A DNA stretch of 61,469 nucleotides, from the NCBI GenBank assembly GCA_964504715.1, contig CAZDEP010000008.1, positions 1 through 61,469 of the forward strand, read 5' to 3'. This DNA comes from an uncultured Candidatus Saccharibacteria bacterium (GTDB taxonomy: Bacteria > Patescibacteriota > Doudnabacteria > UBA920). Below are positions 6,893 through 56,132 of the stretch, piece by piece. The translations under genes were made by a program, and so were the position numbers. The notes under the pieces were generated by a model, which saw only the letters and a program-made list of their open reading frames with translations, ran no database searches and was not told the origin of the DNA. The stretch's first letter is position 1, and the number at the start of each line of letters is the position of its first letter.

Positions 6893-8420
6893 ATTCTATT
6901 ACCCTAGTTTCCCTAATTACGTGCACTTTTATTTCACCGGGGAATTTTAGCTCGCCCTGGATTTGGTTGGCTATGTCGCGCGCCATTTTTTGGGCGGCGG
7001 AATCGTCAATCTTTTCCGGCATAACAAAGACCCTTAGTTCCCTTCCGCCCTGAATGGCGTAAGATTTTTGCACACCTTCGTAATTGTTGGCAATATTTTC
7101 CAAATCCGTAAGGCGTTTTATGTAATTTTCCAAACTGTCTTTTCTCGCGCCCGGCCGGCTACCGGAAATGTTGTCGCAGACGTCCACAATAATTGCTTCA
7201 ATGCTATTGGCCCGTTCGGACTTGCCCGAAACGTCGGTGTCATGGTGGTGGGAAGCAATGGCTTCTTTTATGCGCGGATCGAGCGAGAATTTTTCCGCAA
7301 TTTTTACACCCAATTCCACGTGACTGCCTTCCAAATCCTGGTCAAGCGCTTTACCAATGTCATGAAGCAGGGCTCCCTGTTTGACTATGGAAACGTCCGC
7401 ACCCAGCTCCTCTGCCAAAAGCGCCCCAATTTTTGCCATTTCCACGGAGTGCCTTAAAATATTCTGCCCGTAAGAAGTCCTAAACATCATGCGCCCTACC
7501 AAATGAACCAATTTAGGCGGAAAGTTGGTAATGCCCAATTCGTAAACAGCCTGCTCCCCGGCCTGTTTGATTTGCTCATTAATTTCCGCCTTGCTTTTTT
7601 CGTACGCTTCCTCTATGCGGGCCGGATGTATGCGGCCGTCGGAAAGCAATTTTTCCAAAGTCAATTTGGCAATGTGCCGGCGTATGGAATTAAAGCCGGA
7701 AATTACCACGCTGTCCGGCGAATCATCGATTAAAATTTCCACGCCCATCATTTGCTCAAAAGTGCGGATATTGCGGCCTTCCTTACCAATAATCCTGCCC
7801 TTCATTTCTTCGCTCGGGATTTGGACTACGGTGGTGGTAACTTCGCTGGTGACTTCGCTTGAGACCCTTTCCAAGGCTTGGGCGACAAGGTTTCGAGCTT
7901 CCCGGTCGGCGCCTTCGTAGGCCTCATTAAGCAGCTTCTTGTGGAGTTCCACCATTTCTTCCTTAACCAGTTTTTCGGTGTTATCCAGTAAAACTTTTTT
8001 TGCCTCTTCCCGGGTTAAACCGGCAATTTTTTCCAAATTTTCCAGCTGTTTGGCCTTAATCTGCTTTATTTCTTCCTGCAAAGTTTTAACTTCCTGGTGC
8101 TTTATTTCCAAGTCCTGCTTTTGTCTTTCCACAGTCTGGGATTTGCTTTCCAGTTCTTTCTCCTTCCTGTCTACGCGCTCTTCAAAACGCACCATTTGCT
8201 GCCGGAATTCCGACTCCTGTTTTTTTGCCTGCTCAATAATTTCCAAAGATTTGGTTTTGGCCTCCAAAAGCAGCTCCTTCTCCTTATTCTTAGCTTCCTC
8301 CATAAGGCGTTCCGCCCTTGCTTCTGCCGAACCCACTTTTTTTGCGGCCATCTGTTGGCGCACAAAAAAACCGGCCGCCGCGCCAATAACGACTCCCAGC
8401 AAAATATATATGCCAATCAT
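6882..8420 (-). CDS. rny: ribonuclease Y
   Basis: N-terminal TM helix, long coiled coil, KH domain (GKEGRNIRTFE) and HD domain (LLHDIGKA, ASHHHD). Confidence 0.95.
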   Translation of the reverse strand: MIGIYILLGVVIGAAAGFFVRQQMAAKKVGSAEARAERLMEEAKNKEKELLLEAKTKSLEIIEQAKKQESEFRQQMVRFEERVDRKEKELESKSQTVERQKQDLEIKHQEVKTLQEEIKQIKAKQLENLEKIAGLTREEAKKVLLDNTEKLVKEEMVELHKKLLNEAYEGADREARNLVAQALERVSSEVTSEVTTTVVQIPSEEMKGRIIGKEGRNIRTFEQMMGVEILIDDSPDSVVISGFNSIRRHIAKLTLEKLLSDGRIHPARIEEAYEKSKAEINEQIKQAGEQAVYELGITNFPPKLVHLVGRMMFRTSYGQNILRHSVEMAKIGALLAEELGADVSIVKQGALLHDIGKALDQDLEGSHVELGVKIAEKFSLDPRIKEAIASHHHDTDVSGKSERANSIEAIIVDVCDNISGSRPGARKDSLENYIKRLTDLENIANNYEGVQKSYAIQGGRELRVFVMPEKIDDSAAQKMARDIANQIQGELKFPGEIKVHVIRETRVIEYAR

Positions 8421-52629: not shown

Positions 52630-53217
52630 CTAAAGCTTCCTCCAAAGGTTTTTGAGTTTGCCGGAAAATACTACGCGTTGCAAAATTATTATTACAATAA
52701 CCAAGCCCAAAACCACCAGCTCGGCATAGTGGATATAATTGTTAAGCAATGTAAACGACTTTCTTAGGGCAAAGCCTAAAGAGCCCATTACCAATAGCCA
52801 AAACACCATAATTGGCAATATGTGTTTGGCATAGGTTTTACCTGGTATGCCAATTACTCCGGCTCTCGCAACCGCGGCACGATGAACCCCGTAAACAAAT
52901 TTGGTAAGAAGCAAAGTAACTTTGGGCCGGCGCAAAAAATGCTCGTCAAAGTGGTTGCTCTTTTTTATAATCCATTGAGCCATTTGGTTGGAAGAATTTT
53001 TCAACTTTTTTCCGAACCAAAACCAAAAAAATTGCTCGACACCCGAACCTGCCAATGCAACAACAATTAATGCGGCGGGATTGTGGCGTCCTGCGCTAAT
53101 TAAAAAGCCCACCACTAACATAGTGACGTTACCTTCAATTAGCATCCCGACAAAAATTAGCAAATAAGGAAAAAAACTCCAGTCGGGGAAATATGGCCCT
53201 ATAAGTGAATCAAGCAT
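52630..53217 (-). CDS. DedA/VTT-domain membrane protein (second copy)
   Basis: Polytopic protein containing LIFVGMLIEGNVTMLVVGFL. The ATG at 53217 follows the TTG of the ORF track. Confidence 0.65.
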   Translation of the reverse strand: MLDSLIGPYFPDWSFFPYLLIFVGMLIEGNVTMLVVGFLISAGRHNPAALIVVALAGSGVEQFFWFWFGKKLKNSSNQMAQWIIKKSNHFDEHFLRRPKVTLLLTKFVYGVHRAAVARAGVIGIPGKTYAKHILPIMVFWLLVMGSLGFALRKSFTLLNNYIHYAELVVLGLVIVIIILQRVVFSGKLKNLWRKL

Positions 53218-53281
53218 CAATTATTAATTAAAATATGACAAGTAAAGTATAACAAAAAAGGCTTAAAATAAATTAAATTTT

Positions 53282-54805
53282 TCAACCCAAGTGCAAAATT
53301 TCGATTTTGGCCCCTAGCTTTTTTAGGCGATTGACCAAATCTTCATAACCCCTGTTTATTGAATAAACATTCCTCAAAACCGATTTGCCCTTGGCGGCCA
53401 ACATACCAATAAGCACAATGGCGGCGGGACGCAAAGCAGGGGGACAGATTAACTCGTTGGCTTTGAGCTCCTGCGGCCCTTCCACATACACCCTATGAGG
53501 GTCGGCCAAAATTATTTTAGCGCCCAGCTTGTTTAGCTCCATATAGTAGATAGCGCGATTTTCGTATGCCCAATCGTGGATTAAAGTTGTGCCAATCGCC
53601 TGGGTTGCTATGGGCACAAAATAAGGCAAATTATCCATATTCATGCCCGGATCATCGTGCGCTTCGAGCTTGTCCGGCAGTGCTTTTAACTTGGAGCTGT
53701 CTTGAAAAGTCACGTCTACCAAATTGGTTATTCCGTTTCTGGATTTGTAAGCTTTGCTGAGATTAAACTTAACCCCCATTTTTTCCAATTTTAAAAGTTC
53801 CAAATCCAAAAAATCTATCGGGCACCTTTTGACCGTAAGGGGGGAGTTGGTGGTCACGGCTATGCTAAAAAAAGTCATGGCTTCTATGGGGTCTTCGCTC
53901 GGAAAAAATTCCACATCCTTTTTTATGCGCGGAACTCCGTGGATTTTTAAGGTATGGGTGCCAATGCCTTCTACTTTTACGCCTAAAACTGTTAAAAAAT
54001 GACAGAGGTCTTGCACCATATAATTACTGGCCGCACGCCGAATTTCCAATTGCCCCTTAAGTTTGGCCGCCGCCAGAATAACATTTTCGGTCGGCGTGTT
54101 GCCGCTTTCATACATAACCACCTTTTGCGGATTTACGGGCAAAGAATTGCAATTATACCAGCCGTTGGCTGTCTCCACCTTAAGGCCTATATTGCCAAGA
54201 GCATATAAATGAGGCTTGACTGTCCTTTCCCCTAAACTGCAGCCGCCCGCGTAAGGCAGACGAAAATTCTTTAGCATATGCATAAGCGGCCCCATAAATA
54301 AAATAATGCTGCGGGTTTTTCGGCCAGCCTCATGGTTGATTTTGTTCAAATTAATCTTGGCGGGGGGCTTAATTTCCAAGTCATTGCCGTTAAGCCATCT
54401 GACGCTCACGCCAATGCTTTCCATTACTTCCAAAAGCCTGTTTACTTCTTCTATCCTCGGCATGGAACGCAGAGTTGTTTTGCCCTGGTTAAGCAAGGAG
54501 GCGCAAATTAAGGCCACGGCCGCATTTTTGGATGAGTTTATGGAAACTGCGCCTGAAAGTTTGTGGCCGCCTTCAATTGCCAGGCTGACGGAGTTGTCCG
54601 CCAGCTGGATAATTTCCTGGTTCAATACCCGGCTTATTTTAGCCAGCATGCCCGTGGAAAAATTCTGCACCCCGCTTTCCATGCGCGCCACGGCTGACTG
54701 GCTGGTGCCTAGCATGTTGGCAAACTGGCTTTGGGTTATGCCTTGTTGCTGCCTGATTTTTGATATAAAAGCGCCAATGCGTTTGCGATCTTCAAATATA
54801 GACAT
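53282..54805 (-). CDS. murA: XRE-family HTH domain fused to UDP-N-acetylglucosamine 1-carboxyvinyltransferase (MurA-like)
   Basis: The N-terminal ~65 aa (IRQQQGITQSQFANMLGTSQSAVARMESG) form the HTH. The rest is a full MurA/EPSP fold (GGHKLSGAVSINSSKNAAVALICASLL; active-site loop YAGGCSLGERTVKPH). Confidence 0.8.
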   Translation of the reverse strand: MSIFEDRKRIGAFISKIRQQQGITQSQFANMLGTSQSAVARMESGVQNFSTGMLAKISRVLNQEIIQLADNSVSLAIEGGHKLSGAVSINSSKNAAVALICASLLNQGKTTLRSMPRIEEVNRLLEVMESIGVSVRWLNGNDLEIKPPAKINLNKINHEAGRKTRSIILFMGPLMHMLKNFRLPYAGGCSLGERTVKPHLYALGNIGLKVETANGWYNCNSLPVNPQKVVMYESGNTPTENVILAAAKLKGQLEIRRAASNYMVQDLCHFLTVLGVKVEGIGTHTLKIHGVPRIKKDVEFFPSEDPIEAMTFFSIAVTTNSPLTVKRCPIDFLDLELLKLEKMGVKFNLSKAYKSRNGITNLVDVTFQDSSKLKALPDKLEAHDDPGMNMDNLPYFVPIATQAIGTTLIHDWAYENRAIYYMELNKLGAKIILADPHRVYVEGPQELKANELICPPALRPAAIVLIGMLAAKGKSVLRNVYSINRGYEDLVNRLKKLGAKIEILHLG

Positions 54806-54809
54806 AAAA

Positions 54810-54829
54810 TTATATCACTTATGATATAA
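54810..54829. promoter_or_regulatory. palindrome TTATATCA-CTTA-TGATATAA immediately upstream of the HTH-MurA start
   Basis: 8-bp perfect arms lying 5-24 nt upstream of the ATG. They overlap TGATATAAT (extended -10-like) on the coding strand. Confidence 0.45.
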
Positions 54830-54851
54830 TCATAACATATTTATCCAAATT

Positions 54852-54879
54852 AAAAAAGCCCCCACTGAGGGGCTTTTTT
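54852..54879. terminator. bidirectional terminator-like hairpin
   Basis: AAAAAAGCCCC-CACTGA-GGGGCTTTTTT. Confidence 0.55.
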
Positions 54880-54886
54880 AAAAAAT

Positions 54887-55120
54887 TTAGAAATTGAATA
54901 ACCTTGAAAACCACCGCTCTAAAAACAGGCTGTTTCGGTTGGCATAATATAGAGCCAGAATGCCGCCTAAATAGGCCAAGTTGAGCAAAAGCACGCGTAC
55001 AAGGTCGTGTTTGATTATTTTGTATTCTTCAGCGTGTTCGAAATTCTGATGAGTTGAAGTCGTCATGTAGTTTGGCTTAAATGTTTTTATAATTATAGTA
55101 CTTTTTATTTTTAATGCCAA
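54887..55120 (-). CDS. small hypothetical membrane protein
   Basis: 77-aa ORF with one hydrophobic helix (LLLNLAYLGGILALYY). The likely start is the internal ATG (MTTSTHQ). Confidence 0.4.
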   Translation of the reverse strand: MALKIKSTIIIKTFKPNYMTTSTHQNFEHAEEYKIIKHDLVRVLLLNLAYLGGILALYYANRNSLFLERWFSRLFNF

Positions 55121-55190: not shown

Positions 55191-55661
55191 ATGTTTCAAC
55201 CAATTGTTATTTTATGCCTTTGCCTGGCCGTAATATCGCTGGGCATAGGCGGATGGGCGGCCTATAAAATTACCATTTTGAGCCGCGCGCAAAAAGTATT
55301 CTTTGCCGGCAAAACCGGCCAAGACTTAGAAGAGGCGCTTATGCAGCTTATTCAAAGAACCACGTCCCTGGAGGACGAAATGCTTGCGGCTTCGGGGGAA
55401 ATTAAAAAATTAGAAAATTCCCTGGGGTTTGCCGTTCAAAAAATGGGCCTGGTTCGCTACAGTCCGTTTGCCGACGGCGGAGGCAACTACAGCTTCTCGC
55501 TGGCATTGCTTAACCAACATGACAGCGGAATAGTTATAACCAACATGTACGGCCGGCAGCAAAGCCGAGTTTACACCAAAACCATTTACCAAGGGAAAAG
55601 CGAAACGCCTCTGACCGAAGAAGAACAGCAAGCCGTACGCCTTTCCAATGAAAAAAATTAA
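55191..55661 (+). CDS. DUF4446-like membrane-anchored protein
   Basis: An N-terminal TM helix and the pattern VRYSPFADGGGNYSFSLALLNQHDSGIVITNMYGRQQSRVYTK. Confidence 0.6.
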   Translation: MFQPIVILCLCLAVISLGIGGWAAYKITILSRAQKVFFAGKTGQDLEEALMQLIQRTTSLEDEMLAASGEIKKLENSLGFAVQKMGLVRYSPFADGGGNYSFSLALLNQHDSGIVITNMYGRQQSRVYTKTIYQGKSETPLTEEEQQAVRLSNEKN

Positions 55662-55724
55662 CCCGAGAACCTAGACGTAAAAAATAATATTTAAAAATAA
55701 CACCGGGAGGAGAAAGAAGAAATT

Positions 55725-56132
55725 ATGGACAAAGATCTAAACGGATTTGAAACTACGGCCGAAACCGTGGTAGGCCCCAGCGTAAAAATTCAGGGGGACC
55801 TAAACAGCGAAGGCAACATAAACGTAGAAGGCCAGGTAACCGGCAAAATTTCAACCACCCAGGGCGTATTTGTTAAGGAAGGCGCCAAAATTACCGCAGA
55901 CATTAGCGCCGGCAACGCCGTAATTGGCGGGGAAGTCCAGGGCAACATAAAAATTTCCGGCCATCTTATACTCCAGGCTTCCGCCCGGATAAATGGTGAC
56001 ATTGCCTGCCAAATTTTAAGAGTTGAGGACGGGGCTAACTTTTCCGGTAAATGCAATATGAAAGGCAGTAACGGCAACGGCAACGGCAAAAAGAGCGCGG
56101 TAATGGAAACAGAACTGGAAACGGAAGAATAA
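55725..56132 (+). CDS. bactofilin-family cytoskeletal protein
   Basis: Repetitive beta-helix pattern (IQGDLNSEGNINVEGQVTGKI...VIGGEVQGNIKISGHLIL...INGDI) and RBS GGGAGGAG. Confidence 0.85.
   Translation: MDKDLNGFETTAETVVGPSVKIQGDLNSEGNINVEGQVTGKISTTQGVFVKEGAKITADISAGNAVIGGEVQGNIKISGHLILQASARINGDIACQILRVEDGANFSGKCNMKGSNGNGNGKKSAVMETELETEE

Follow-up and report, generated by a model that had tools for sequence, protein, structure and literature searches.

The fused gene and its protein

The window considered here comprises positions 1 to 61,469 of contig CAZDEP010000008.1 from an uncultured Candidatus Saccharibacteria bacterium, whose genome is available as 30 contigs totaling 1,011,762 bp (92% complete). 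In public records, its relatives go by the names Saccharimonadales or Patescibacteria. One reverse-strand gene of this contig encodes a protein, termed HTH-MurA, in which a helix-turn-helix (HTH) domain of the XRE/Cro-C1 type precedes a MurA enzyme domain (Table 1). MurA performs the committed step of peptidoglycan synthesis and is an antibiotic target. An earlier note made from the sequence alone had described this fusion, together with a perfect palindrome in front of its start codon, and had read it either as a DNA-binding, possibly self-regulating first enzyme of peptidoglycan synthesis or as a MurA-fold sensor controlling an HTH.

Table 1. Positions of the fused gene, its start region and its neighbors in the window.
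Feature	Position	Strand	Basis
HTH-MurA coding sequence, 507 aa and stop	53282..54805	-	ORF list, Pfam, NCBIfam
XRE/Cro-C1-type HTH domain, aa 1–62, recognition-helix region TSQSAVARME	54620..54805	-	Pfam, AlphaFold2
Flexible linker, aa 63–73	54587..54619	-	AlphaFold2 model
Complete MurA (UDP-GlcNAc 1-carboxyvinyltransferase) domain, aa 74–507	53285..54586	-	alignment to solved MurA, model
Operator-like perfect palindrome	54810..54829	.	sequence, genome scan, orthologues
Extended −10-like TGATATAAT (right operator arm; 3 nt to the ATG)	54809..54817	-	read from sequence
Alternative extended −10 TGTTATGAT, abutting the palindrome upstream	54829..54837	-	read from sequence
Terminator-like hairpin and T-run of the upstream 77-aa gene	~54852..54876	-	terminator scan and sequence
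Gene of a 77-aa membrane protein, upstream of murA	54887..55120	-	
Gene of a 196-aa polytopic membrane protein, downstream of murA	52630..53220	-	
DUF4446 gene and bactofilin gene	55191..56132	+	

The open reading frame (ORF) cannot start earlier, since only three sense codons precede its ATG. Its N-terminal part is indeed the Cro/C1-type HTH that the earlier note had recognized in the 507-residue ORF: the Pfam family HTH_3 (PF01381) matches residues 14–62 with 50.4 bits against a cut-off of 23 (E 2e-13), and an AlphaFold2 model shows a four-helix bundle (residues 3–20, 25–32, 36–43, and 51–61) at predicted local distance difference test (pLDDT) scores of 84–93. The motif TSQSA..R.E of the recognition helix is kept in the aligned fused relatives. 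The solved HTH domains nearest in sequence belong to C.BclI, lambda cI, and HipB (E 6e-5 to 4e-3); C.BclI-type controllers, the N-terminal domain of lambda cI, and HipB act at their own promoters, where they occupy inverted repeats in dimeric form. Whereas these small autorepressors dimerize via the HTH itself or via a small C-terminal domain, the C-terminal partner in HTH-MurA is a 434-aa enzyme. The two parts are joined by a linker for which no secondary structure is predicted (residues 62–73) and whose pLDDT falls below 50 at residues 66–71 of the AlphaFold2 model.

The remainder of the protein has the MurA/EPSP-synthase fold over its full length, in agreement with the complete enzyme and the retained Cys loop proposed in the earlier note. 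EPSP_synthase (PF00275) matches residues 78–494 with 144 bits (E 6e-42) and spans profile positions 2–417 of 417, the MurA subfamily model NF006873 of NCBIfam is matched with 318.6 bits (cut-off 297), and the domain aligns with solved MurA structures (5ujs, 190 bits; 1uae, 130 bits). The active-site loop YAGGCSLGERTVKPH is present, with its cysteine at residue 189. In fact, all eight catalytic or substrate-binding residues checked in the alignment with solved MurA are found in HTH-MurA, where E. coli K22, N23, R91, C115, R120, D305, R371, and R397 correspond to K93, N94, R165, C189, R194, D391, R417, and R485. Within an alignment of 67 relatives, these residues are invariant in all 34 active fused forms, which comprise eight from the same family, 20 from other Patescibacteria, five from actinomycetes, and the window protein itself. 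The AlphaFold2 model (mean pLDDT 91.8) places the HTH, the linker, and the MurA fold in this order, and its MurA part superposes on E. coli MurA (1uae) with a template modeling (TM) score of 0.96 and a root-mean-square deviation of 1.7 Å. Canonical MurA (EC 2.5.1.7; E. coli and E. cloacae, structures 1uae and 3kqj) thus shares with HTH-MurA the two-domain inside-out alpha/beta barrel as well as the catalytic Cys loop and the Lys, Asn, Arg, and Asp residues. However, the two are only 24–30% identical, and HTH-MurA falls into a separate MurA2-type clade (support of 99–100 in the Shimodaira–Hasegawa-like approximate likelihood ratio test, SH-aLRT) and carries the additional N-terminal HTH and linker.

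A check for a second, unfused murA, which the earlier note had proposed, found neither another MurA nor any other EPSP-fold locus in the 1.01-Mb genome besides the fused gene. The genome also contains murB, three Mur ligase genes, and two MraY-family genes. Since the fused gene is the sole EPSP-fold gene in a genome with these pathway genes, its catalytic residues are invariant and its model fits the solved enzyme, the enzyme half looks active and is predicted to possess MurA activity.

The palindrome and the start region

The palindrome that the earlier note had placed directly before the start of the fused gene was recovered as TTATATCA-CTTA-TGATATAA. Its core is TATATCA-N4-TGATATA, and it conforms to the pattern AT[AC]TCA-N4-TGA[TG]AT. 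The shorter form TATCA-N4-TGATA occurs only once in the entire genome of 1,011,762 bp, while ATATCA-N4-TGATAT has one exact occurrence, two with one mismatch, and 46 with two. In eight of ten relatives, TATCA-N4-TGATA was found one to three times per genome, and the site or sites at the fused murA are always among them. A search for a wider regulon therefore yielded no other palindrome target, the site being unique in this genome and nearly so in its relatives. Furthermore, the same palindrome lies just before the start in the upstream regions of eleven orthologues from other genera, several of which carry a second, distal copy directly after the upstream terminator and upstream of the promoter. 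As these distal copies lie outside any transcript, they argue for a DNA site and not for an RNA hairpin.

Within 150 nt of the 32 fused loci of Patescibacteria, a perfect palindrome (12/12) was detected at 14 loci, one with at most one mismatch at 19, and one with at most two at 26; the chance rate of a match with at most one mismatch is approximately 4.5e-4 per 150 nt. Conversely, in 14 genomes carrying the same MurA subtype without an HTH (L134–L148), no locus shows a palindrome with at most one mismatch (0/14), nor does an HTH gene lie within 700 nt upstream of these 14 loci. Two fused loci of family f13 (L129 and L132) have a decayed recognition helix, and the palindrome is absent there. 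Because the sequence of the arms is conserved and not just their pairing, because copies exist outside transcripts and because the RNA fold is not unusually stable (−7.1 kcal/mol, z = −1.67; 12 of 200 shuffles fold as well), the conserved palindrome points to a protein-binding DNA site, for which the fused HTH would be the obvious binder.

The earlier note had also drawn attention to a −10-like string 3 nt from the ATG, to the absence of a Shine-Dalgarno (SD) sequence, and to the possibility of a leaderless transcript. The string TGATATAAT is present as described. An equally good promoter element, judged from the sequence, is TGTTATGAT, which would put the operator at approximately +1 to +20 and leave a leader of approximately 17 nt; six other loci (L004, L006, L007, L009, L010, and L013) carry a corresponding TGnTAnnnT immediately upstream of the palindrome. 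An SD sequence is indeed absent, yet this is no peculiarity of the fused murA, as was initially considered, because the genome as a whole lacks SD enrichment: SD-like 4-mers precede 10.7% of 786 long ORFs compared to 9.7% in control windows, despite a CCTCC tail of the 16S rRNA.

Across the genome, extended −10 elements peak 6–7 nt before the ATG (19 and 7 genes, as opposed to approximately 2–3 per position elsewhere), which suggests that many of its mRNAs are leaderless. In 37 of 82 fused loci, a −10-like hexamer in the right operator arm lies 6–9 nt before the ATG, so that the operator would overlap the −10 of a leaderless promoter in most relatives. The window gene, with its spacing of 3 nt, departs from the 6–7-nt mode of the genome. 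The proposal of a leaderless transcript consequently fits the geometry of most relatives, whereas the window gene has the shorter spacing and the rival −10 TGTTATGAT. Whichever −10 is used, the putative operator extends over it or over the start site, as expected for a repressor.

The hairpin of the upstream 77-aa gene isolates the fused murA, which therefore has a promoter region of its own of 50 nt. The gene of this small membrane protein occupies the same position in seven of 11 orthologous loci, and that of the 196-aa membrane protein downstream in five of 11. The latter has its own extended −10, TGTTATACT; a DedA identity was considered for its product and dropped, since no Pfam family matched. 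The DUF4446 and bactofilin genes are divergent from the small gene upstream of murA.

Distribution, murA2 and phylogeny

The HTH-MurA architecture recurs in more than 120 protein clusters (64–97% identity) from independent assemblies. It is found in 18 of 24 sampled genomes of the window's own family, in 28 of 300 sampled Patescibacteria genomes belonging to 15 families, and in at least 592 actinomycete species genomes, complete chromosomes included. The earlier note had considered that a frameshift or an assembly error might have joined two genes. Such an artefact has virtually no chance of being the explanation and is regarded as ruled out, since hundreds of independent assemblies, among them complete chromosomes of Streptomyces and Nonomuraea isolates, show this fusion in frame and with the linker at the same place. 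The note had also suggested searching databases for the combination of HTH_3 and EPSP_synthase and had allowed for the fusion being both common and already characterized. The first part holds, as the architecture is found in hundreds of species, but no characterization was found: literature searches turned up neither an account of an HTH-MurA fusion nor one of a DNA-binding role for MurA2, and the Southlakia genetics paper does not mention MurA. Public annotations read “UDP-N-acetylglucosamine 1-carboxyvinyltransferase” or “helix-turn-helix domain-containing protein.”

The two types, fused and canonical MurA, never co-occurred in the sampled Patescibacteria genomes. For three genomes of the same family (G014, G018, and G022; 98–100% complete), in which the search used a protein query and not the Pfam family, no MurA-domain match of either type was obtained, and G018 gave a weak match to the HTH part only. 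These genomes may have lost MurA or may carry a very divergent one.

When the MurA domain alone was searched against 1.84 billion representatives, fused forms were recovered at 31–55% identity, together with unfused near relatives. The fused representative at 55% identity originates from Nonomuraea, and the actinomycete genomes counted above encode a 509-aa fused protein in Streptomyces, Kitasatospora, Actinacidiphila, and Nonomuraea. These proteins are 85–97% identical to the Nonomuraea query and form a tight clade (L014–L093). On a Streptomyces chromosome, the fused gene adjoins a divergent aconitase gene with an iron-box-like sequence between the two; one study describes the same arrangement for SCO5998 (murA2) and SCO5999 (acnA), including an iron box and a predicted DmdR1 site (PMC12161575). 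A SigB-dependent promoter of SCO5998, termed SCO5998p, has been reported and places murA2 under stress control (PMC8346170); its published sequence, used as a 36-nt query, matches locus L092 with 6 substitutions at a site approximately 350 nt before the fused gene. The aconitase neighbor, the iron-box-like sequence, and the promoter match together suggest that the actinomycete fused gene is Streptomyces murA2 (SCO5998). A further study reports murA2 as a target of BldM-WhiI, under developmental control (PMC4125116). In another study, its overexpression did not affect exploration (PMC11005364). In the available text of three of these papers, MurA2 is treated as an enzyme and the HTH is not mentioned (PMC4125116, PMC8346170, PMC12161575). 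Neither the record “S. venezuelae strain L12” nor the examined loci contained a match to the murA2 primers from the literature.

A palindrome is also present in front of the actinomycete genes. Approximately 70 of 75 loci show ATCTCA-N4-TGAGAT 10–15 nt before the start, with unconserved flanks and followed by TAnnnT 6–7 nt from the ATG, and the exact sequence occurs only once or twice per actinomycete genome of 8–13 Mb. Judged from these sequences, the HTH and its putative operator are kept together across two phyla with a one-base change of the half-site, which is ATCTCA in Streptomyces murA2 and ATATCA in the window gene. Streptomyces MurA2 (SCO5998; sven5810 / vnz_28735) resembles the window protein in its combination of HTH_3 and EPSP_synthase (509–512 aa), in its MurA domain (55% identical, MurA2-type, same clade), in the TSQSA..R.E motif of its recognition helix, and in the 6-N4-6 palindrome directly before its gene. 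In contrast to the window genome, where the fused form is the sole MurA, MurA2 is an accessory protein beside canonical MurA in Streptomyces, which has four EPSP-fold loci.

A related palindrome, GATATCTCG-ATGT-CGAGATAAC, lies in a Streptomyces locus (L079:7408-7430) approximately 75 nt upstream of the divergent aconitase gene and adjoins an iron-box-like sequence (~7350-7380). MurA2 may use it as an additional site, or it may serve another regulator.

In trees computed from the MurA domain only, canonical MurA is split from a MurA2-type clade to which all fused forms belong (SH-aLRT 98–100). The canonical group includes unfused enzymes of the same order and family as well as the Streptomyces housekeeping copy. 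In a maximum-likelihood tree with its root on canonical MurA, the clade of actinomycetes lies inside the Patescibacteria family f16 (SH-aLRT 99), represented in the comparison by loci L122, L128, L130, and L131. This nesting and the far higher diversity on the Patescibacteria side favor, but do not establish, that the gene passed from Patescibacteria to actinomycetes and hence from an epibiont lineage to its host phylum; in the approximately unbiased (AU) test, a tree with all Patescibacteria together was not rejected (p = 0.18). Fused and unfused MurA2-type forms appear as sister pairs several times in the tree, which implies that the HTH has been lost repeatedly.

Rare distant relatives have changed in the opposite part of the protein. 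Five of them (P0131, P0139, P0195/P0285, P0197, and P0201) and the metagenomic L149:1615-3129 retain the HTH (TSQSAVARIEKGEQN) as well as the fold, but their Cys loop is gone, and so are the equivalents of R91 and R120. L149 has a different palindrome, TATAAC-N6-GTTATA, between TTGACT and TATAAT. The metagenome scan for such forms used patterns derived from the HTH and returned mostly active forms, L149 being the only catalytically dead one. Judged from their sequences, these HTH-MurA-like proteins are probably pure regulators derived from the enzyme, and they suggest that the MurA fold has a regulatory role beyond catalysis.

Probable negative autoregulation and its alternatives

HTH-MurA is quite probably a bifunctional protein, in which a working MurA carries an XRE repressor head that binds the palindrome at its own promoter and brings about negative autoregulation. 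Two HTH heads would bind the two half-sites of TATATCA-N4-TGATATA, and because the palindrome overlaps the core promoter and the region of transcription start, the bound protein would limit its own synthesis. It is more speculative that the ligand state of the MurA domain (open or closed; UDP-GlcNAc, phosphoenolpyruvate, or the feedback ligand UDP-MurNAc) changes the affinity for the operator, which would match the amount of enzyme to the available precursors in a cell that has very few regulators. The conservation of the operator, the uniqueness of the site, the joint loss of HTH and operator, and the intact residues of a sole MurA all lend support to the self-regulating enzyme that the earlier note had put forward, although we infer from such comparative evidence that the protein binds DNA, acts as a repressor and not as an activator, and forms a dimer.

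Several points weigh against this reading. Six of the 32 fused Patescibacteria loci lack a recognizable palindrome (at least three mismatches). The protein reaches only 309.4 bits with the MurA equivalog model TIGR01072, under its cut-off of 392.7, which marks it as a divergent MurA subtype; with NF009470 it scores 218, under a cut-off of 552. The HTH domain shows no obvious dimerization helix and the canonical enzyme is usually regarded as a monomer, which makes dimer formation on a 6-N4-6 site harder to explain. Finally, control of DNA binding by ligands is purely conjectural.

The second proposal of the earlier note, a MurA-fold sensor without enzyme function that makes the protein a pure transcription factor, is very improbable for the window gene. 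The catalytically dead relatives suggest that a regulator-only form exists, and the proposal fits them, but every catalytic residue checked is invariant in the window protein and the aligned fused forms, the genome has no other MurA although it keeps murB, the Mur ligases and mraY, and fused and canonical MurA never coincide in the sampled Patescibacteria genomes. It is also rather improbable that the palindrome has another function, either as an RNA hairpin in the 5′ leader or as the site of another protein, with the HTH acting elsewhere or in protein contacts. The palindrome can fold as RNA, although with a stability ordinary for its composition, and a hairpin would explain neither the arm sequence conserved across phyla nor the distal copies upstream of the promoter. 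In addition, each genome has very few copies of the site, which is invariably present at the fused gene, and it has disappeared where the HTH was lost or its recognition helix decayed. Activation of murA transcription by the HTH is likewise unlikely. Some XRE proteins do activate from promoter-adjacent sites, among them lambda cI at PRM and, in restriction-modification systems, the controller C proteins, and some orthologues possess two sites; however, in nearly all loci the proximal site lies over the −10 or the start or between the −10 and the ATG, where the bound protein would occlude RNA polymerase.

A more far-reaching version of the autoregulatory reading is less probable. The MurA domain could be the sensor of a one-component switch, in which the ligand state sets the affinity of the HTH and the enzyme gauges precursor supply and adjusts its own production; the module might have originated in Patescibacteria that are ultra-small epibionts, reached the actinomycetes that host them as murA2, and degenerated in a few lineages to a pure MurA-fold transcription factor. 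Metabolic enzymes that combine a DNA-binding domain with catalysis in one polypeptide and act on the promoter of their own gene or pathway are known as “trigger enzymes” and include BirA, PutA, and NadR. HTH-MurA resembles them in this combination, as indicated by Pfam and the model, but it belongs to another enzyme family and uses an XRE fold for DNA binding. Furthermore, the link from ligand or redox state to DNA binding is demonstrated in BirA, PutA, and NadR, whereas it is only proposed for HTH-MurA.

The present analysis adds the joint loss of HTH and operator, the dead relatives, the genome-wide statistics on SD sequences and leaderless starts, the spacing of the window gene outside the genomic mode, and an AU test that tempers the direction of transfer. 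MurA is known to be controlled through feedback by UDP-MurNAc and through regulated proteolysis (ClpCP with ReoM/IreB in Firmicutes), and a MurA that binds its own promoter would, if true, add a third, highly direct way of controlling the enzyme. In the lineage of the window, this control would act on the sole MurA of organisms with tiny genomes and few regulators that depend on a host for building blocks. The same module appears to be Streptomyces murA2, which is known to be switched on in sporulation, making the hypothesis testable in a tractable model. The dead relatives and the lineages lacking both HTH and operator would in turn provide a natural series for the change from an enzyme to a regulator.

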